From an uncultured Deinococcales bacterium (GTDB lineage Bacteria > Deinococcota > Deinococci > Deinococcales > JAAFIG01), in the NCBI GenBank assembly GCA_964244895.1, contig CAXTKV010000102.1:1-18256 (forward strand): 18,256 nt of DNA, written 5' to 3'. Below the pieces are notes generated by a model, which was not told the DNA's origin, searched no databases, and saw only the letters and a program-made list of their open reading frames with translations. Positions 3,761 to 18,256 of this stretch are shown here, piece by piece (the stretch's first letter is position 1; the number at the start of each line of letters is the position of its first letter). The position numbers and the translations under genes are program-made.

Positions 3761-4639
3761 TCAAAATGGCATGTCTTCGGAAGCGGGTTCGGCGTTGGCG
3801 ACGGGCTTGCGACCTTTGGCCTGCGGTGGCGCTTTGCGTTCGGGGGCGGCCTTGCTTCGCGCGCTGGACTGGGGCGCGTTCGACTGGGCCGCGTTTTGAG
3901 CGGCTGGCGCGGTCTTCGCGTCCCCTCGGGCCGTCCGAACCAGCGGCTCGAGTCGTTCGGCTTCGACCTTCAAGTTGGAACGTTTCGTGCCGTCCTTGTC
4001 CGTCCAGTTGTCCGTCGCCAATCGCCCAGTGACCAGCACGGGCGTGCCCTTGGTGAGCGTCCCGGCGGCCTCGGCCAGGTCGTTCCAGAGCGTCACGTCC
4101 ACGAAGTGCGCGCGCTCCTGCCACTGACCCTGCGCGTCCTTCCAGGATTCGGTCACGGCCAGGCTGGCGGTGGCGACGTTGAAACCGTTCGGCGTGCGGC
4201 GCGATTCCACGTCGCGCGTCAGGTTGCCCATGACGGTCACGTGGTTCATGGCGTCGACCAATCGGAATCCGCCGATGGCGTCCGTCACGATCGCGTCCGG
4301 CCCCGCGCCGGGACGCGCGGCCTCGAGCCGTTGCGCCTTGACTTCAACGCGGCTGCGGCGCTGACCGTTCTCGGTTTCCCAGGATCGGTATTCGAGGGAA
4401 CCCTCGACCAGCACGGGGTCGCTGGCGTGCAGGGATTCTGCGGCGATTTCGGCTTGTTTTCCCATCAGCGAACCGCGCTGATACCAGGGGATGTTGCGTT
4501 CCGCGCCGTCGTCACCGATGACGCGGCTGTCGCCCGCAACGGTGAAATTCAAAACGGCGACGCCGCTCGGCGTGTACCGTAACTCCGGGTCACGAGCGAG
4601 CGAACCGACGAGCAAAACGTGATTGATGCCTCGAGCCAT
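3761..4639 (-). CDS. ssb: Single-stranded DNA-binding protein, Deinococcus-Thermus double-OB-fold type
   Basis: Two tandem OB folds (MARGINHVLLVGSLARDPELRYTPSG… and MNHVTVMGNLTRDVESRRTPNG…), acidic tail EDMPF, AAGGAG RBS. Confidence 0.95.
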   Translation of the reverse strand: MARGINHVLLVGSLARDPELRYTPSGVAVLNFTVAGDSRVIGDDGAERNIPWYQRGSLMGKQAEIAAESLHASDPVLVEGSLEYRSWETENGQRRSRVEVKAQRLEAARPGAGPDAIVTDAIGGFRLVDAMNHVTVMGNLTRDVESRRTPNGFNVATASLAVTESWKDAQGQWQERAHFVDVTLWNDLAEAAGTLTKGTPVLVTGRLATDNWTDKDGTKRSNLKVEAERLEPLVRTARGDAKTAPAAQNAAQSNAPQSSARSKAAPERKAPPQAKGRKPVANAEPASEDMPF

Positions 4640-4979: not shown

Positions 4980-5054
4980 GCCGGAGTAGCTCAGCGGTAG
5001 AGCAGCCGATTCGTAATCGGCAGGTCGTCGGTTCAAATCCGACCCCCGGCTCCA
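4980..5054 (+). tRNA. tRNA-Thr(CGT)
   Basis: Cloverleaf: D arm GCTC/GAGC, anticodon arm GCCGA-TTCGTAA-TCGGC, T arm GTCGG-TTCAAAT-CCGAC, encoded CCA. Confidence 0.96.
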
Positions 5055-5468: not shown

Positions 5469-5523
5469 CGAGAATACCGTCCCGGACAGCGTTTCTTAAA
5501 CGCCGTGCTGGACGGTGTTCTCG
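5469..5523. repeat. REP-like inverted repeat
   Basis: CGAGAATACCGTCC… / …CGTGCTGGACGGTGTTCTCG between convergent genes. Confidence 0.6.
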
Positions 5524-9590: not shown

Positions 9591-9888
9591 GTGAATGTCC
9601 GTTCCCCAATCTTAGAGCGCATCGTTACGGGCGCGTTGCTGACCGTGGCGGGCGGCGTCGGCCTGTGGGCGCTCAGGCCCGCACCCGCGCCCGTCGCGCC
9701 TCGCATTGAACAACCGCGCATCGTCGTGGCCATCAGCGGTCAGGTGGCGCACCCCGGCGTCTACGAGTTGCCGTTCGGATCGCGCGTGTTTGCGGCGATC
9801 AAGGCGGCGGGCGGTTTCAGCGATCGCGCCGACACCGACCTGGTTAACCCCGCCAAACACCTCGAGGACGGCGATCAGGTGCGCGTAC
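9591..9888 (+). pseudogene. comEA: 5' fragment of competence DNA receptor ComEA (N-terminal TM + SLBB domain), truncated by transposon insertion
   Basis: VVAISGQVAHPGVYELPFGSRVFAAIKAAGGFSDRADTDLVNPAKHLEDGDQVRV is the ComEA SLBB signature. The frame stops at an abrupt AT-rich junction where 'VP…' and the HhH domain should follow. Confidence 0.88.
9801..9835 (+). other. PAM (AAG) + protospacer for CRISPR spacer 3 (homing target)
   Basis: 9804-9835 GCGGCGGGCGGTTTCAGCGATCGCGCCGACAC vs spacer GCGGCAGGCGGCTTTAGCCCTCGGGCCGACAC = 26/32; AAG at 9801-9803. Confidence 0.9.
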
Positions 9889-10078
9889 TGTGAGGTATAA
9901 AACAAACGCAGAGTAGTTAAGATGTATATTCCAGTGAGTTTACAGTAAATCGCGTTTGCGTAAGTGGCGGATTCTCATCGCCGCGTCGCGGCCCATCTTA
10001 CTGCATCTTCGCTCCATTTTCACGCTTTTTCCAATCGTGGCTCATCAGCTCGCTGAGGCTCGAGGAGGAACCGTGGAA

Positions 10079-10785
10079 ATGACTGTCTCATACCGTTTCG
10101 CGACTGGCGAACCTTTGCTAGAGATGCCCATCTCTGAGCTCAAACAGGTCAAGCTCGCGAATCTGAATCCCATGCGTCGCGCGTGGACGACTCGTTACCA
10201 GGGACACACGCCTGGATTTTTTTCTGCCGCTCCTCAGGTCAACTCGTTTACTACGAGAGTTATCTCGAGCGTCGAGTATTGCTTGTCGAGGACTACCAGA
10301 CAAGGGCGAACTGGGTGATCGACCAACCGTTCCGTCTGCACTTCGAGGGTGGCACCCACGTTCCCGATTTTCTGATGGTCACGGTCGATGGACCCAAAGT
10401 GATCGATGTCCGAAGCCGTGCCTATTTGAATACCACACGCTTCATGGCTGATCGAATCGCGATGGCGGAGGCGATGAACCGAATCGGTTGGTCGTACGAG
10501 GTGCGGTCCGAACCCGATCCTCAGATGTTCGCCAATTTGAATTGGCTGAGCGGTTTCCGGCGACGCCCTCCGGACGTTGAACTGTTCGCTCCTCGAGTGA
10601 TCGACTGCTTGTCGAGTGGTCCGTTGAGTTTCGCACAACTGTTCCATCGGCTCGGAAACGAACTCTTTTCGAAACCCGTCGTCTTTCACCTCCTTTGGCA
10701 CCGGATTCTCGAGGTCGACGTCTACGCACCACTGACAGGCGAAACCCGCGTTGACCTGAGCAAGGTGAAAAGAGTTGAAGCGTGA
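10079..10785 (+). CDS. tnsA: TnsA-like transposase endonuclease subunit, split by a -1 frameshift at T7 (10217-10223)
   Basis: GAGGAGG RBS at 10062-10068. The first frame reads …NPMRRAWTTRYQGHTPGFF and the -1 frame continues FCRSSGQLVYYESYLERRVLL…QPFRLHF…HVPDFL…VIDVR…NLNWLSGFRR…VFHLLWHRIL, a TnsA-like PD-(D/E)xK pattern. Confidence 0.82.
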
Positions 10786-12890
10786 TGTGGAAGATCCAAC
10801 TGAAGGTCGGTGCCCGGTTTTTTGCCGATGGTCGAAAGCACACCGTCACCGCCATCCGCGACGGTTTGCTCCAGACCCGCGACAATCAGGGTGCAATCAC
10901 GCTGATCAATGTCACCGATTTTTTGAGCTTCCCGGATTTCAGGTCGCTGGACAAGGACTCGCCGACGGCATCGTGGCCCTTCACGATGGTCAGTGACGAG
11001 GCGCTCAAAAAGGCTCGAATCCTCGAACGGCACCTTCGAGAAGTCATCACCGGTTCTCCGAGTCCTTACGGCGATCCAGAGCCACTCCCTCCGAAGGACG
11101 CGTACGATCCTCAAACGACGACACTCACTCTTCGCGTGTCGCTTAAAGCGGCTGAACTCGGGCAGAGCGACTCCGCCATCTGGAAGTACAAGCGCCAATA
11201 CGAATCGCACGGTGTAATGGGTCTCGTCGATCAGCGCGAGGTTCGGTACGTCAAGGCATTCGAGCGGATCGATCCACGGATCAAGGACGCCACTGCCAAG
11301 GTGCTCGAAACCGCGAAATCTGAGTCGAAATTGACGAAGTTGATCTTGCGCGAGCGCATCAAACGACAGCTCAGCAAAGATCACCAGGAGAAGATCAAAC
11401 TCCCATCAGTGGCAACACTGAATCGGTACATCGACGCGATCGGCACACCGCTCGGTGTGTTCCAAACCGCCCAGCGACGCAAGTCTGAGCGCAACCGTCC
11501 GGAGCGACCGTTTGGGCGCTTTGAGGCCGATTGGCCGGGCCAGATCGTCATATACGACTCGACGCAGTTGAACCTGTTTGGTCTCGACCCGATCACGCTG
11601 AAATGGGTTCAAATTCAGCTCACCATCGCCCAAGATCTTTACAGCCGCTCCATCGTGGCGTGGCGGTTCACGCCGACCGTACCGAGCGTGGATGCGGCAC
11701 TCCTGCTGTTCGATGTCCTCAGCCCGAAGCGCGCGAAGCGCTCTTGGCACGAGTCGACTCGAGGTTTCTATTTCGGCGTCCCGGACGAGGTCGTGCTGGC
11801 CCTTCCGGACGATGAAGAAAAAGAAACCAGCGAGGAGAAGACAACCGACGATACAGCGCGCATCCCGATGGTTCATCCGGAAACGGTGTTAATAGATCAC
11901 GGGCGCATCTTCGTTAGCGAGGCGTTCAGGCAGGCGTGTCTGCGGTTGGGGATCAGTCTCCAATATGCACGCCGCCGCGCCCCGACGGACAAAGCGATCA
12001 TCGAGACCACGTTCGACTTTGTCAAGGAACACTTCTGCGCGCGCCTGCCCGGTTTCACAGGGGCCAACATCGCGGCTCGAGGCGTCAACGTTGAGAACAG
12101 AGCCGTTTATTTCATCGATGAGATCGAGGAACTGTTCGCGGAGTGGGTGGCGACTGAGTGGCAACAACGTGTTCACGAGGGGTTGTTCCTGCCGGGATCG
12201 CCCAAGCTCGATCTCAGCCCGAACGATGTTTACCGCGAAGGAATCGCGCGCGCGGGGTTCGTATACGTCGTGCCGGATGCCACTTTGTACTACGAGTTGC
12301 TTCCGAGCGAGTGGCGTGTTGTGGGGGACAACGGGGTGTCGGTCAATGGACTGTTTTACGATCACGTGCGGTTGAACGACTACCGTGGTGTGCCTTCGGA
12401 GTACGGTGGAAAAAACTGCGGGAAATATCCGGTGAAATACGATCAGCGCAATCTCGGCGAGATCTTCTTCTTTGACTATCGCGCTACACCGCCTCAATGG
12501 ATCGCGTTGCGCTGGCGGGGAGCGCGGTCTCAACCCATGCCGTTCAACGATCACGCCTTGGCCTTCGCGAAAAACTTGTGCATTGAGCGCCAACTCGACC
12601 CTCGACAACCTGCCGTGCTCGAGGGAGCGCTTCGGTTCCTGTTGGATCGTTGGGATCAGCAGCAGTTTGGGACAGAGAAAGAGAGGAGAGCGATGGTCAA
12701 ACGCGCTGCGAATTTGGCCGCCAATCTTCGTGATCGAACCCGTATGTCAGCAGAACTCCTCCCTCCCGACGAGCCAATCAACTTGGGATTGATCGCTGGC
12801 GAGTTGAACCCTGAAGAAATCCTGGCGTACATAGAAGCCGCGCGAAGTCAGCCGATGGGGGATGAACATGCCAGCATGTTTGATTTCTGA
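10785..12890 (+). CDS. tnsB: TnsB / Mu-type DDE transposase
   Basis: ~701 aa with N-terminal HTH-like segments, candidate DDE triad IYDST…LIDHG…KAIIET and a Mu-transposase-like C-terminal region. The start overlaps the tnsA stop (TGATG). Confidence 0.9.
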   Translation: MWKIQLKVGARFFADGRKHTVTAIRDGLLQTRDNQGAITLINVTDFLSFPDFRSLDKDSPTASWPFTMVSDEALKKARILERHLREVITGSPSPYGDPEPLPPKDAYDPQTTTLTLRVSLKAAELGQSDSAIWKYKRQYESHGVMGLVDQREVRYVKAFERIDPRIKDATAKVLETAKSESKLTKLILRERIKRQLSKDHQEKIKLPSVATLNRYIDAIGTPLGVFQTAQRRKSERNRPERPFGRFEADWPGQIVIYDSTQLNLFGLDPITLKWVQIQLTIAQDLYSRSIVAWRFTPTVPSVDAALLLFDVLSPKRAKRSWHESTRGFYFGVPDEVVLALPDDEEKETSEEKTTDDTARIPMVHPETVLIDHGRIFVSEAFRQACLRLGISLQYARRRAPTDKAIIETTFDFVKEHFCARLPGFTGANIAARGVNVENRAVYFIDEIEELFAEWVATEWQQRVHEGLFLPGSPKLDLSPNDVYREGIARAGFVYVVPDATLYYELLPSEWRVVGDNGVSVNGLFYDHVRLNDYRGVPSEYGGKNCGKYPVKYDQRNLGEIFFFDYRATPPQWIALRWRGARSQPMPFNDHALAFAKNLCIERQLDPRQPAVLEGALRFLLDRWDQQQFGTEKERRAMVKRAANLAANLRDRTRMSAELLPPDEPINLGLIAGELNPEEILAYIEAARSQPMGDEHASMFDF

Positions 12891-14103
12891 CGCTCAGGAT
12901 GACTCGTCCATCGAAGTCCTCAAGCTCGGAACCGCGCTCCCAGTGAAGCAAATCCACGACCGGAGAACGTGGGACGAACACGTGCGCTTCGAGATGATCG
13001 CGAAATCGCCCAGGGTGACCCTTGAGGAGTACAACGCCATGAGCGCACTGCAACAGCGTGAGTCCGATGCCCTGCGCCGACAGTACACAGGGAAACTCGC
13101 CCCCGTTTTCAGCGGTCGGTACAGTCGCGTGTACGACGAGATGTTTCGTATTGCGACCAGCAACATCGATCTCAGCAGTGGCGTTCGAATCGGAGCGGTT
13201 CTCACTGGTCCGCCAACGGTCGGGAAAACGACAACGATCGTTTGGTTTGGGCGTCGGTACGAGCGTCGCAGGCGCGCGATCCATCGTGCACAGTTCGGTA
13301 CGGACGAGTTTGTGCAGGGAGATCCGGAGTGGCTATTTACCCCGGTGATTTACGTTTCCCTCGATGGGACGCGAACCTTCAAAGCCCTGCTGCTAAACAT
13401 CGCCGCCTTCCTCAATATTCCGAAATACGACAAACTGGACGAACTCGGTTTGAAGTCGCAGATCGCCACGTACGCCAACAACTGCGGGGTCAGCCTGATC
13501 CTGATCGACGATATTCATTACCTCCGCACGCAGTTCGTCGGGGCGGAGCCATTAATCAACGACCTCAAGAAATGGATGGGCACGATACCCGCCACCTTCA
13601 TCTTTGCGGGTAACGATTGCGAGCAAATCGGATTCTTTCGCGAGTGGGCGAAAAGCAAGCCCAGTACGGCCTCGCAAACGAATCACCGGTTTGGAAAGAT
13701 CGAGTTACAGCCCTTTGCGATTGACCACTCCCAATCACGGGAACTCAACACGAAGGAACTCGGTGACGTCCTCCAAACGTACGATGACCTCTGCGTGCTG
13801 CTCAATCACCAGTCCGGCGATCTCGCCAAGCTGCTGATGTACATTATTGATCGCACGTCAGGCTACATGGGAGCCATCGTAACCTTGATCAAACACGGTG
13901 CAACTTTGGCGATCGCCAACCGAACAGAGCGATACTCGGAAGCGTTGCTCAATCAGATCTCGCTCGATAATGCTTCTGAGACGGCGCGACCGGACCGAAA
14001 AGCGGTGTCCGTCAACAAGACCAAGCAATCGAGGACTCCAAAGGATCGGAAGCGCAAAACGGCTCAAACCACTTCGCAGGATGGTGAGCCTCCTGCCCGC
14101 TGA
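12862..14103 (+). CDS. tnsC: TnsC/TniB AAA+ ATPase
   Basis: Walker A GPPTVGKT, Walker B LILIDDIH; lies between tnsB and tniQ and overlaps both. Confidence 0.88.
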   Translation: MNMPACLISDAQDDSSIEVLKLGTALPVKQIHDRRTWDEHVRFEMIAKSPRVTLEEYNAMSALQQRESDALRRQYTGKLAPVFSGRYSRVYDEMFRIATSNIDLSSGVRIGAVLTGPPTVGKTTTIVWFGRRYERRRRAIHRAQFGTDEFVQGDPEWLFTPVIYVSLDGTRTFKALLLNIAAFLNIPKYDKLDELGLKSQIATYANNCGVSLILIDDIHYLRTQFVGAEPLINDLKKWMGTIPATFIFAGNDCEQIGFFREWAKSKPSTASQTNHRFGKIELQPFAIDHSQSRELNTKELGDVLQTYDDLCVLLNHQSGDLAKLLMYIIDRTSGYMGAIVTLIKHGATLAIANRTERYSEALLNQISLDNASETARPDRKAVSVNKTKQSRTPKDRKRKTAQTTSQDGEPPAR

Positions 14104-15232
14104 TTCCTCCTACCGCCTTCCCCTGCGGGTAATCGTGCCCGTTGGTGTGCCCTTGTCTGTCGTGCTCGAGCAAACGGCGGGCGCCTTGGAACTGAGCGTT
14201 TCCGAATTGTTGGGTTGGATCGGCGTCCCACGAATACCCGATCCACCGAGCAGAATTGACGACCCGCCGTGGCTCAATCCAGCTCAACTCGCCAGGTTGG
14301 CGCAGATCACGGGCGTTCCTGAAAAGAGCATCACGAACGCGAACCTCTCCTTTTTTGATGCTGCGCTCGCGTCATCCAAGCGGCAAAGGGCAACAGTTTC
14401 TGCATCCCGTCGAACGCACGCCGCCATCATCGGTGCGCTGCGGGTGAGACACTCGACGCGTCTTTGCCCTCGGTGCCTCGCCGAGGGGCGTCAGAAGAGG
14501 TTGGCGTGGCGAACGGGCTGGCTGTTCGCTTGCACTCGGCATCGGGTGCTTCTCGTTGCGACCTGCCCGCGCTGCGGCCTTCCTTTCGATGCTCATTGTC
14601 GTCAATCACGGGTTCCAGATCTCAGACGTTGCGACAACCACCCGGCCAAGGGGGAGAAGTGCGAACAACTCCTGTCTGATATTCCGACGGTCAACATTGA
14701 TGGTTTTCCCGAACTGATTCGATCGCAAGGACGTCTCGAGGCGGCGTTGACGGGACGAACGCTACGGTTTGTCGGTCAGCGCACCACACCGGTCGAGTAC
14801 CTCTACGGCCTTAAAGAACTGGTTGATGTTCTCGAGGCCGTTGCGGTCGTTGGTGAGCTCGGCGAGCTTCCGCCCGAGGTATTGAACCGTTTCGAGGCTC
14901 AGGTTCGCTCTCGCGCAGTCCAGTGGCAGCGACGCAACGAACACACGCCCGATGGCCTATCACCCGCGCCCTTTTCGAGTGAAAGCGACATCGAACTGCT
15001 CTCGGCCGTGGTTTCAACAGCGCTCGAGATCGCTGACTCGAAAAGCTTGCAAGCGGCGGAAGATCGAATGATGTATTTGATCGAATCGTGCTGTGCGGTT
15101 GCCGCAGACGAACCGCGACGAATTCTGAACGCTATTACACGCCATGTACAGCGGCAGCGGCGACCACGGCTGTACGTGGCCTTTCGCGAGTTGTACGACC
15201 GGGTGCGTCATCGGTACAAACTCTACGAGTAG
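14081..15232 (+). CDS. tniQ: TniQ family target-selector protein (~383 aa)
   Basis: N-terminal LPLRV.. motif and TniQ zinc-binding pattern CPRC…W…WLFACTRH…CPRC…C…C. Start chosen at ATG 14081. Confidence 0.88.
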   Translation: MVSLLPADSSYRLPLRVIVPVGVPLSVVLEQTAGALELSVSELLGWIGVPRIPDPPSRIDDPPWLNPAQLARLAQITGVPEKSITNANLSFFDAALASSKRQRATVSASRRTHAAIIGALRVRHSTRLCPRCLAEGRQKRLAWRTGWLFACTRHRVLLVATCPRCGLPFDAHCRQSRVPDLRRCDNHPAKGEKCEQLLSDIPTVNIDGFPELIRSQGRLEAALTGRTLRFVGQRTTPVEYLYGLKELVDVLEAVAVVGELGELPPEVLNRFEAQVRSRAVQWQRRNEHTPDGLSPAPFSSESDIELLSAVVSTALEIADSKSLQAAEDRMMYLIESCCAVAADEPRRILNAITRHVQRQRRPRLYVAFRELYDRVRHRYKLYE

Positions 15233-15255
15233 ATGTCGGCGCTCCGGAGGTCAGC

Positions 15256-15840
15256 ATGCATGAGGTCAAGATTGTTCTCGACCGTCGCTCACGATTCGTT
15301 CGACGTTGCCTTGATCAACCGCACGTGTTCCATAAAGTCCTGGCAGGCATGAATCCTGAAAAAACCAGAATTCTCTGGAGGTTGGCGAAAGGCAACCTGA
15401 TCGTCCGATCTGTACGACCGCTTGATTGGAAAGATCTCGATGCTCGTGACCCCAGTTTCGGTCAGCGGAACCACGTGGCATTTGATCCCAACAAACCCGA
15501 GGGTACCGCATACTTTTGCAACGTGTTCGCCTACGCTCGTAAAAGGCCAGTGGTCGGACCGTGGCAACCCAAAAGCCCCGACGAGTACCTCGAGTGGTTC
15601 GAGTTGCAGGGAAACAGATATGGGTTCGACGTGCTCGAGAGCGCCATCATCCGCCAGGAGCCCTACCACGTTGAGACGAGTTCCATGCCGCTGACCGTGC
15701 TGCCAGTGGAGTTGATGGGAGCGATCCGCATCACGGACAGCGAGAAATTCCGCGCAGCCCTCGAAGAAGGGATAGGACGTTTGCGCGCGTTCGGATGTGG
15801 GCTGATGTTATTGCGACCAATCCAAGGTCTGCCATCGTGA
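15256..15840 (+). CDS. cas6e: Type I-E crRNA endoribonuclease Cas6e (Cse3/CasE)
   Basis: GGAGG RBS, N-terminal PHVFHKVL and ILWRL, G-rich loop GIGRLRAFGCGLM; 194 aa. Confidence 0.88.
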   Translation: MHEVKIVLDRRSRFVRRCLDQPHVFHKVLAGMNPEKTRILWRLAKGNLIVRSVRPLDWKDLDARDPSFGQRNHVAFDPNKPEGTAYFCNVFAYARKRPVVGPWQPKSPDEYLEWFELQGNRYGFDVLESAIIRQEPYHVETSSMPLTVLPVELMGAIRITDSEKFRAALEEGIGRLRAFGCGLMLLRPIQGLPS

Positions 15841-15886
15841 TCAGACATACGCCTGTAATTGGAGCTGAAACGTCGTCTTGATCAAG

Positions 15887-16098
15887 GTTTTTCCCACGCC
15901 TGTGGGGATCTGCCGGATCGAACTTTCGCCCTTTACGAATGACCTGAGTTTTTCCCACGCCTGTGGGGATCTGCCGGGTTCGCGCACCTATCAGGTCGTC
16001 GCTGAGGGGTTTTTCCCACGCCTGTGGGGATCTGCCAGCGGCAGGCGGCTTTAGCCCTCGGGCCGACACATTTTTCCCACACCTGTGGGGCTCTATTG
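15887..16098 (+). CRISPR. Type I-E mini-array: 4 repeats (29 nt, GTTTTTCCCACGCCTGTGGGGATCTGCCG) and 3 spacers (32 nt)
   Basis: Repeats start at 15887, 15948, 16009 and 16070 (61-nt period) with a CCCAC/GTGGG hairpin. Spacers are 15916-15947, 15977-16008 and 16038-16069. The last repeat is degenerate. Confidence 0.95.
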
Positions 16099-16209
16099 AG
16101 GTTTGAAGGTAGCAAACAAATCTGCGTCCCTATTTCCTCAATCATCGGGAGTGACTTTCGCCAACCTGAAAGAGGCTTGGAAATTGACCCGACGGAGGTG
16201 CTCGCACAC

Positions 16210-17382
16210 ATGAATCTCTTGAGCGATGCGTGGATTCCGACCAGTGCTGGCACGGCCAGGGTCACGGAACTTCTCGAGGCACCACGAAACCGCAACATCG
16301 TGCTATGCGGAATGCAGTACATTGCCGTTCTTCGTCTCTTGTTGGCCATTTGCTACGACGGTGGAGAAACCAGTCGGGGTCTCCTCAAAAATCGAGCTGT
16401 TCAAAAACGCACGCTTCGCCAACTGGAACCCTGTAGCTCGGCTTTCGATCTTTATCAAGGCTGCTGGACGTGCGCGGATTTGACTGGCAGTCCTGGCTCT
16501 CTCGCTCGCCTCGCGATGGGCGTACCGGCACGCAACAATCGGGTATTTCACGTCCATGCACGAGACGATCAACCCACCCCCCGATCCGAAGCAGCGGTTG
16601 CCTGCGATCTGCTGACATTCCAGCTCAGTGCACTGGACTTTGGGAACAGCGCCACCGGCCCGCGCCATCACAGTCCGTGCGCGACGGCGGCCCTCGGAAT
16701 CGCCATCGGAGGCGATCTGCTCGAGACCTTGGCCTTGAACCTGGTGCCGGATTCCGTGCCCCAAAAACCCAAGTGGAAGCGACAGCCGAATGTTCAGGTC
16801 GATTTTGTCAACCAAAACCATGCTCTCCCGTCGAGTCTGGCGGAGCGTTACACCTGGGTGGCGCAAGCGGTGCGGTTCGGAGACGGCGGTGTGGTGACCG
16901 CTCGCGGGTTCAAGCTTGACGCGACGGGCGATCCGATGACGGCCACCGTCGCCGTCAAAGAGGGGCGTGAGTTCGCCTCGAAGGCCATCCGATCCAGCGC
17001 GTGGTTGACGGGTTGCACATTACTCGGTCTGAATGCGCGGCCCGCCGCAACGTTGGAACACGCCCGGCGGCTCGGAATCGAGCACCGCGTTCGGGTGATC
17101 GCGCAGGTCAACGATCGGCGGTATCCTGCTGTGCTGGTCGAAACCATAGATCGGTCTTTCCCGAGCGCGTCGCTGGACACCTCGCTCGAACCGCAGGTCT
17201 GGAAGGTCCGCCGGGAGCTCGAACGCACCGTGGGTCAGGACGCATCATCGATCTTCTTGTCTTACCTCGACGATGTGGCGCACGAGGGATCCCAAGTTGA
17301 TCCCCGCGCGATTCTGAGGCGAACGCTCGAGGATCTCGGGGCACGAGCCCTGCTCCGCAAAGCCGAGGGGTGGCTCGCGTGA
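16210..17382 (+). CDS. cas8e: Type I-E large subunit Cas8e (Cse1/CasA), short (390 aa)
   Basis: GGAGGT RBS; Cse1-type start MNLLSDAWIP, AVLRLLLAI, GDLLETLALNL and RYTW. Confidence 0.82.
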   Translation: MNLLSDAWIPTSAGTARVTELLEAPRNRNIVLCGMQYIAVLRLLLAICYDGGETSRGLLKNRAVQKRTLRQLEPCSSAFDLYQGCWTCADLTGSPGSLARLAMGVPARNNRVFHVHARDDQPTPRSEAAVACDLLTFQLSALDFGNSATGPRHHSPCATAALGIAIGGDLLETLALNLVPDSVPQKPKWKRQPNVQVDFVNQNHALPSSLAERYTWVAQAVRFGDGGVVTARGFKLDATGDPMTATVAVKEGREFASKAIRSSAWLTGCTLLGLNARPAATLEHARRLGIEHRVRVIAQVNDRRYPAVLVETIDRSFPSASLDTSLEPQVWKVRRELERTVGQDASSIFLSYLDDVAHEGSQVDPRAILRRTLEDLGARALLRKAEGWLA

Positions 17383-17390
17383 GGTCAATT

Positions 17391-17816
17391 ATGGACTCGT
17401 ACATCACCTACTTGCAGTCACTGCGCCCAGACCAGTTGAAACAAATCAGGGCGGCCTGGCGCGTTGGTGCTCGTCGAATCGAGGAGGCGCACCCCGCCAT
17501 CGCTGGCTGGACGAGGCATCGACCGTTGCCGCACCTCATCGCGGCGGGTGTCTTTTCGAGCCATCCCCGAATCGGCATGACGCCCCTCGTGGTGGCGGTG
17601 CGGGATCGTGTTCGCGAAAAAGCGCTTCATCACGCGCTCGAGGGAAGCCTCGCTCACCTCGAGGACGTTCTCCGGGAGTGGGTCAGGTTTGTGCCCGACC
17701 AAACAGCGTTGGATTGCGATCGCTTATTTCGAGATCTCTGCGGTTGGGATCACCCAAAACGACCAGTTCAGGACCGCTGGCGGCGCGAATTCTATGGGAG
17801 GACGCATGAAAATTGA
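17391..17816 (+). CDS. cas11: Type I-E small subunit Cas11 (Cse2/CasB)
   Basis: C-terminus LDCDRLFRDLCGWDHPKRPVQDRWRREFY is the Cse2 signature; lies between cas8e and cas7. Confidence 0.85.
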   Translation: MDSYITYLQSLRPDQLKQIRAAWRVGARRIEEAHPAIAGWTRHRPLPHLIAAGVFSSHPRIGMTPLVVAVRDRVREKALHHALEGSLAHLEDVLREWVRFVPDQTALDCDRLFRDLCGWDHPKRPVQDRWRREFYGRTHEN

Positions 17817-18256
17817 GATTCATATCATCCACTCCGTACCGACCTCGAGACTCAACACGGATCGTAACGGGCGCCCCAAAACCATCATTTACGGCGGCTA
17901 CAAACGCGCGCGAATCTCGAGCCAGGCGCAGAAGCGGGCAGCTCGAATGTTCACGGACGAACACGGTTTGATCGACGCGTCGCAGCAGGCGTATAGATCT
18001 CGGTTGATCCCGCAGAAGGCCATCGAGGCGCTCCGAGACAACGACACCGACGAAACAACAGCCACCCTGTTGGTCACGAGGGCTTTCGCGGCGCTTGGGA
18101 TGAAACTCAACGACAACGGGCAGAACGAGTACATGCTGTTTCACAGTCACCGCGAACTCCATGGCTTCGTTGCAGCGATCCGCGAGCATCGAAAAATACT
18201 GCTCAAAACCCGCACCGAAGCGGGCGGCGATAAAAAAGTGCAGCAGCAGAAGTTTC
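17806..18256 (+). CDS. cas7: Type I-E backbone Cas7 (Cse4/CasC), 5' part, runs off window
   Basis: Not in the ORF track. Translated by hand from ATG 17806 (GGAGG RBS): MKIEIHIIHSVPTSRLNTDRNGRPKTIIYGGYKRARISSQAQKRAAR, open to the window end. Confidence 0.93.
   Translation, partial: MKIEIHIIHSVPTSRLNTDRNGRPKTIIYGGYKRARISSQAQKRAARMFTDEHGLIDASQQAYRSRLIPQKAIEALRDNDTDETTATLLVTRAFAALGMKLNDNGQNEYMLFHSHRELHGFVAAIREHRKILLKTRTEAGGDKKVQQQKF

Follow-up and report, generated by a model that had tools for sequence, protein, structure and literature searches.

Tn7-like elements with a type I-E Cascade in one uncultured family of the Deinococcota: a probable RNA-guided CRISPR-associated transposon

Background

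Among the described CRISPR-associated transposons (CASTs), those of type I-F3 (Tn6677/VchCAST, VpCAST and the I-F3b elements) encode TnsA, TnsB, TnsC and a single TniQ of approximately 390 amino acids (aa), along with a Cascade without Cas3, Cas1 and Cas2 and a tiny array in which a leader-distal, self-targeting spacer lies beside an atypical repeat (10.1101/2021.08.16.456562). They insert about 49 bp downstream of the protospacer (PMC12774636) and home by guide RNA rather than by TnsD (PMC11406308). Each of these traits has a counterpart in an element that starts at position 9889 of an 18,256-nucleotide (nt) stretch of DNA, here called the window, which constitutes the entire contig CAXTKV010000102.1 (C102) of the uncultured Deinococcales bacterium GCA_964244895.1 (G000; 5.12 Mb, 328 contigs, 91 % complete), and for which homing by guide RNA is likewise proposed. 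Unlike the I-F3 elements, which employ Cas8/5f-Cas7f-Cas6f, its effector is of type I-E, with a 29-nt repeat and an AAG protospacer-adjacent motif (PAM), its array is located between cas6 and cas8, its transposase belongs to the NF033179-type group, and its host is an uncultured member of the Deinococcota. Considering all the genomes analysed, this family-wide Tn7-like element is real and very likely functions as a type I-E CAST with RNA guidance.

Type I-E Cascades have been placed alongside transposition genes before; the sources cited by accession or DOI are drawn on for the accessible parts of their text. The 2025 classification names I-E5 as the I-E CAST, with an active Cas3 and, in that text, no TniQ (PMC12669027), while I-E5 of Streptomyces is described as a telomeric TnsBC element that has one end and lacks a protospacer adjoining it (10.1101/2024.11.13.623437). 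The element shares with I-E5 the linkage of a type I-E Cascade to TnsB/TnsC and the lack of Cas1-Cas2, but it incorporates TnsA and TniQ, has no Cas3, and has two ends with a target-site duplication (TSD) in a chromosomal gene and a protospacer at a fixed distance; it is a member of neither I-E5 nor I-F3. The Rpn-associated I-E Cascade, a putative non-Tn7 CAST, is likewise found without Cas3 beside a putative transposase, but in place of TnsABC-TniQ it has an HNH nuclease along with an Rpn/PDDEXK protein; in the accessible part of their paper, Rybarski et al. report type I-E only with Rpn-type proteins (10.1101/2021.08.16.456562). The type I-C CAST candidates of the same source resemble the element in having TniQ directly after TnsABC and the Cas genes downstream, but contain a different Cascade subtype, and no array or homing spacer is reported for them in that part of the text.

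A 2024 review (PMC11656645), with references to Faure 2019, Rybarski 2021 and Faure 2023, lists I-E among the effectors captured by Tn7-like transposons, which counts against novelty; the capture listed is probably the Streptomyces or the Rpn case. In a term search, "I-E" did not occur in the main text of Faure 2023, Benler 2021 or the 2024 Annual Review, and full-text literature searches, with subscription papers, patents and bioRxiv supplements outside their scope, returned no TniQ-bearing I-E CAST.

Results and discussion

A two-ended element inserted in comEA

The guanine-cytosine content drops from 63 % to 57.5 % at approximately 9889, where the element begins with TGT directly after CGTAC, within an SLBB-domain gene. 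A preliminary description of this DNA had let the locus start here, and the position proved to be a true transposon end. The right, tnsA-proximal end (TGTGAGG...; 9889..9960, inner limit approximate) is identical at 20 of 30 positions to a far end (TGTCAGG...) on contig C225, and the 5-bp TSD CGTAC is present at both (9884..9888 and C225:173-177). The combination ACA+CGTAC occurs 112 times in the genome; the C225 copy is preceded by sequence resembling the near end. The interrupted gene is comEA, of which the 5' part (membrane anchor and SLBB domain, PF10531; 9591..9888) precedes the element, while the 3' part, with a helix-hairpin-helix domain (HHH_3; C225:600-773), continues in frame after the far end. 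When the element is removed in silico, a single ComEA-type open reading frame (ORF) of 299 aa spans the empty site. The C225 end match, the in-frame comEA and this empty site show that the element is bounded by two ends with a 5-bp TSD and that it encloses the cas genes.

Extension of the contig, which had been suggested at the outset, recovered further parts of the locus. The last 55 nt of the window are the first 55 nt of contig C235 and occur nowhere else in the genome, giving a unique overlap. C235 (7.4 kb) completes cas7e and continues with cas5e and cargo. The element is at least 15.9 kb long. The far end is situated beyond the cas genes, on C225, rather than between tniQ and cas6e. It is extremely improbable that this arrangement arose as a chimera in assembly, or that a Tn7-like element and a defective I-E system came to lie side by side by chance: the metagenome assembly is fragmented (328 contigs) and the sole public DNA run found essentially does not cover the element, but the same gene order occurs in five other genomes belonging to three other genera, and the TSDs match and the comEA halves are in frame on two separate contigs.

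A homing spacer and its counterparts in related genomes

The last spacer of the array, spacer 3 (16038..16069), matches a protospacer in comEA (9804..9835) at 26 of 32 positions, next to an AAG PAM (9801..9803); like the 5' part of comEA and the parts of the element in the window, these lie on the forward strand. The seed is perfect and the mismatches are at positions 6, 12, 15, 19, 20 and 24. Every sixth guide position is left unpaired in I-E Cascade, and three of the six mismatches are at 6, 12 and 24. The comEA site is the best non-self match of spacer 3 genome-wide (next best 24/32), and none of 20000 shuffled spacers attained 26/32 within the 200-bp flank. From the end of the protospacer it is 48 bp to the TSD and 53 bp to the transposon end, and it is the tnsA-proximal end that faces the target. 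When translated, the spacer corresponds to a variant of the comEA product (AAGGFSPRAD versus AAGGFSDRAD); it is flanked by the altered repeats of the array.

Close homologs of TnsB, TniQ and Cas8e are found in six of the nineteen host-family genomes (G000 and five of its eighteen relatives), while a close Cas8e is found in none of the 345 other genomes of the phylum (best E value 6.5e-17, versus at most 5e-67 in the family). The gene order is kept in G014, G002, G017, G001 and, across two contigs, G012, the relatives representing three other genera. Searching the genome contigs with a Cas8e alignment gave six loci, five of which were already known clusters, and no related loci were obtained with TnsB among the genome contigs or with Cas8e and the Cas8e alignment among metagenome contigs.

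In three of these relatives the last spacer also matches a gene flanking the element. That of G014 targets the 3' end of rtcB (29/32, PAM AAA, 53 bp to the end; 0/20000 shuffles), that of G001 an NFACT-family gene (24/32, PAM AAG, 51 bp; 2/20000 shuffles) and that of G017 comM (20/27, PAM AAG, 53 bp; 1/20000 shuffles). For G017 both ends, here beginning with TAT..., were found with a 5-bp TSD, the comM halves being on separate contigs. The homing geometry is thus present in four of the six genomes and a two-sided duplication in two of the six; the six genomes are kin and not independent, while the four target genes differ. The last repeat period in G017 is 56 rather than 61, and the distance from PAM to end 80 rather than 85 bp. 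A guide shorter by 5 nt coinciding with an insertion 5 bp nearer the PAM suggests, in this one case, that the insertion distance tracks guide length. Tn6022-like elements, which are said to have been reported by Faure et al. in 2023 to target comM by means of the protein selector TnsF, also insert in a competence gene, as seen here for comM in G017 and for comEA, but here a spacer matches the target.

At the level of genome sequence, a homing spacer with a PAM and a fixed spacing, found again at different genes in the relatives, provides direct evidence that targeting is guided by RNA, and a selector consisting of protein only would hardly account for one geometry at four target genes. The proposal of the preliminary description that an I-E Cascade was co-opted for RNA-guided transposition is supported by the same three features, to which the interruption of comEA, its targeting by spacer 3 and a frameshift in tnsA are added here.

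The Cascade could instead be cargo that serves in silencing or competition, for example by repressing comEA or rival elements, with TniQ alone directing homing and the self-matching spacers acquired after insertion. Such a role would be in keeping with competence genes making up two of the four targets, and the occurrence of a Cas3-less I-E locus without tns genes on mobile-looking DNA in another genome (G196) makes non-transposition roles possible. It is nevertheless very improbable, as the protospacers lie 51–53 bp from the end at four unrelated targets in four genomes, on the strand that faces the right end, and in G017 this distance changes with the length of the guide. Furthermore, spacer and target differ mostly at every third (codon wobble) position, as would be expected if the spacers derived from other alleles and had not been taken up from the resident site, and no I-E Cas1 or Cas2 was found in G000.

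The type I-E Cascade and its array

The co-oriented order tnsA-tnsB-tnsC-tniQ-cas6e-array-cas8e-cas11-cas7 is followed by cas5e on C235. The eight genes and the three-spacer array within the window had been recognised from the sequence beforehand, as had the closeness of cas6e to tniQ and the lack of cas3, cas1 and cas2 near the cluster; profile matches confirmed every gene, and the gap between the tniQ stop and the cas6e ATG measures 23 bp. The Cas6e protein (15256..15840; 194 aa) matches PF08798 and TIGR01907, both above cut-off. Between cas6e and cas8e, the array (15887..16098) comprises three 32-nt spacers and four 29-nt repeats recurring every 61 bp; a single change is present in repeat 3 (28/29), and repeat 4 is degenerate (23/29), although its stem still folds. 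Type I-E systems are characterised by a 29-nt stem-loop repeat, 32-nt spacers and an AAG-type PAM, and the repeat, spacer length and PAM observed here fit these norms. The array is followed by a short cas8e (16210..17382; 390 aa; PF09481), cas11 (cse2; 17391..17816; 141 aa; PF09485 exactly at cut-off) and the 5' part of cas7e (17806..18256; PF09344), the rest of which is on C235 (371 aa complete), while the cas5e product on C235 (167 aa) matches TIGR01868 above cut-off. Cas8e, Cas11 and Cas7e reach or exceed the Pfam cut-offs but fall short of those of NCBIfam. All Cas matches are to type I-E families, and the full effector (Cas8e, Cas11, Cas7e, Cas5e and Cas6e) is present.

No cas3, cas1 or cas2, and hence no module of the three downstream of the cluster, was found in the window or in its 7.4-kb continuation. 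One cas1 and one above-cut-off cas3 are encoded in G000, both of them belonging to a complete type I-C system on C36, whose repeat differs from that of the element; four further, weaker cas3-profile matches are all below cut-off, and I-E Cas1 and Cas2 were not found in this 91 % complete assembly. As far as it is assembled, the element does not have the Cas3 and Cas1-Cas2 of a canonical I-E defence system. There is also no above-cut-off cas3 on the element contigs of the five relatives. A canonical I-E system that includes Cas3 is additionally present in G012, on a different contig (C292).

The AlphaFold model of Cas8e (predicted local distance difference test score 88.9) has Thermus CasA/Cse1 as its best structural match (E 1e-18, template modelling score 0.76). 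With 390 aa, the protein is short compared with 486–561 aa in 23 of 24 comparison Deinococcota ORFs, and it may be guessed, but only guessed, that it has lost the Cas3-docking surface. In a quick, midpoint-rooted tree, from which three fragments were excluded, sixteen CAST-type rows (genomic context known for some of them only) form one branch as opposed to 24 other Deinococcota Cas8e proteins, with a Shimodaira-Hasegawa-like approximate likelihood ratio support of 100. Only canonical Thermus Cas8e was found in the plasmid collection. Cas8e and Cas11 are separate in G000 but fused (556 aa) in G014 and some metagenomic homologs, and the cas11 ORF between cas8e and cas7 is absent from four of the six genomes (G001, G002, G012 and G017).

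The Cas3-less locus of G196 (C8, ~58700-64100) consists of an array, a cas6e-like ORF, a short cas8e (388 aa), a cas11-like ORF, cas7, cas5 (173 aa) and a small array, with no tns genes by tblastn and no adjoining Cas3-sized ORF. In the Cas8e tree its protein falls, on a long branch, between the canonical group and that of the CASTs, and the locus may resemble the donor of the CAST Cascade.

The transposition genes

An actinobacterial-type TnsA-like protein is encoded by tnsA (10079..10785; NF033179, 129 bits against a cut-off of 110). It is followed by tnsB (10782..12890), which encodes a DDE transposase of 702 aa with weak matches to both Mu-transpos_C and rve, tnsC (12862..14103), which encodes an AAA+ ATPase of 413 aa (AAA_22, TniB; Walker A GPPTVGKT, Walker B LILIDD), and tniQ (14081..15232), whose 383-aa product matches PF06527 (E 3e-13) and has conserved Cys/His clusters. 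TnsB, TnsC and a TniQ/TnsD-family protein are thus encoded in one operon, as is the mark of Tn7-like elements. As this tniQ is the sole TniQ/TnsD-family gene found in the element, with no TnsD, homing would be by guide. Two more TniQ-like genes occur elsewhere in G000 (C161:180-584 and C191:1489-1800), and a repeat on C161 resembles that of the host I-C system. Against solved CAST proteins, TnsB and TniQ show weak similarity (best E 1e-7 and 5e-6, respectively), and TnsC has no meaningful match among solved structures. For TniQ, twelve cluster representatives at E values up to 1e-30 were retrieved among 1.84 billion.

A midpoint-rooted FastTree phylogeny, from which matches of <660 or >799 aa were excluded, places the six element TnsBs on one branch of thirteen rows (support 99). 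This branch splits into G000 and G014 versus G001, G002, G012 and G017, matching the presence and absence of Cas11, and the named outer relatives are mostly actinobacterial. A TnsB from a Noviherbaspirillum genome (P0036; 40 % identical) falls in the sister group.

Points against RNA-guided transposition and the state of the G000 copy

A number of points weigh against an RNA-guided type I-E CAST. RNA-guided transposition of this element is inferred from the genomes and from the I-F3 analogy. Targets of spacers 1 and 2 were not found, the best genome matches being 22/32 and 24/32. The G001 spacer has a seed mismatch at position 3. No far end turned up in either G014 or G001, so that the 51-bp distance in G001 is based on end homology alone. 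In G002 the cluster is complete, yet neither an end nor a target could be recognised in the 120 kb examined, the spacers reaching at most 21/32. The last spacer of G012 matches a gene of G016 (27/32) with PAM AGC, and that gene region is unassembled in G012. TnsA residues D-V-R of G000 and G014 are N-V-K in the remaining three. Between C235 and C225 the element's interior, broken by a multi-copy repeat, is unassembled, and the genome is 91 % complete. Finally, a frameshift at seven consecutive T residues (10217-10223) divides tnsA between two reading frames.

Several candidates were rejected. Matches of 18 nt between spacers 1 and 2 and viral contigs extend only to 22/32 and 21/32, respectively, without an AAG PAM, and were judged to be due to chance, as was a first target candidate for G012 on C494. 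Far-end candidates in G014 (three exact pattern matches versus two in the control, the most plausible being 7/30 to the near end) and G001 (nine versus ten in the control) were likewise discarded. Two spacers of a G012 array (C513) translate into one and the same stretch of peptide; in relatives, both have their match at the 5' end of a single conserved host gene.

The tnsA frameshift, at a site where the four relatives aligned all have a single ORF of 233-259 aa, may be a genuine mutation or a site of slippage, or may have arisen in assembly; one public DNA run contains a small share of the window but essentially does not cover the element, and thus not the T run, and no RNA run containing the window was listed. 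A small hairpin (10198-10223) lies directly 5' of the run and could be a terminator or slippage signal, such sites being overall at chance level (ten found versus nine expected in the promoter/terminator scan of the window). With tnsA frameshifted, the G000 copy may be restricted to replicative (cointegrate) moves, or be immobile. That the I-E CAST family is real but the G000 copy decayed after an RNA-guided arrival and can no longer move is quite possible, if short of probable; this is compatible with a type I-E CAST, as it concerns present activity rather than origin. The frameshift, a probable insertion sequence repeat ~120 bp inside the far end and the absence of a second copy of the element from G000 would agree with decay. 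However, the remaining nine core genes are open and full-length compared with their homologs, the ends and TSD are intact, and the one-base slip in the T run is possibly an assembly error or bypassed by slippage. TnsA-less Tn7-like elements can, moreover, move replicatively (PMC11406308), and the cargo includes a tyrosine recombinase that might resolve cointegrates.

Proposed mechanism

The mechanism proposed for the type I-E element follows the I-F3 model of PMC11656645 and PMC11406308. By this analogy, Cas6e would cut the array into CRISPR RNAs, and Cascade would bind a PAM-flanked target and open an R-loop. TniQ, through a putative contact with Cascade, would load TnsC at the PAM-distal end, upon which TnsC would recruit TnsB, with TnsA, and insertion would take place ~48 bp past the R-loop end. 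Spacers 1 and 2 would provide guides for hopping onto mobile DNA.

Cargo and flanking host DNA

The cargo on C235 (1583-7430) encodes several proteins without Pfam or NCBIfam match, an XRE-type helix-turn-helix regulator and the tyrosine recombinase; related small ORFs apparently occur 3' of cas5 in G001, G002 and G012. The multi-copy repeat ~120 bp inside the far end, probably an insertion sequence end, is located at C225:1-55 and also at the ends of C5, C115, C161, C187 (both ends), C215 and C297; C187 may be cargo of the element.

The host DNA upstream of the element in the window contains a family of short palindromic intergenic repeats resembling repetitive extragenic palindromic sequences (87-141, 990-1047, 2917-2961 and 5470-5523), and a tRNA-Thr gene (4980-5054), which is not the attachment site. 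It also includes a gene (3761-4639) for a protein resembling single-stranded DNA-binding proteins with two repeated domains, as in Deinococcota.

Conclusions

The locus probably represents an undescribed programmable CAST subtype, in which an actinobacterial-type TnsABC-TniQ independently captured an I-E Cascade within one uncultured Deinococcota family, with guide-RNA homing to at least four host genes, a Cas11 that is separate, fused or absent, and an insertion distance that depends on the length of the guide. No Cascade has been studied better than that of type I-E, yet the CAST lists examined include no TniQ-coupled, Cas3-less I-E system. If true, a natural interface between TniQ and a type I-E Cascade would show a transposon adapting to a new effector, which bears on the engineering of CASTs from arbitrary CRISPR systems, and the element would offer an orthogonal tool for integration that combines an AAG PAM with a transposase of a new lineage. 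Natural variants are available across the six genomes, with Cas11 separate, fused or missing, TGT or TAT ends, and a short homing guide. For the host, the insertion in comEA would disable DNA uptake, and the finding of competence genes at two of the four homing sites suggests that the element blocks the uptake of DNA by its hosts.

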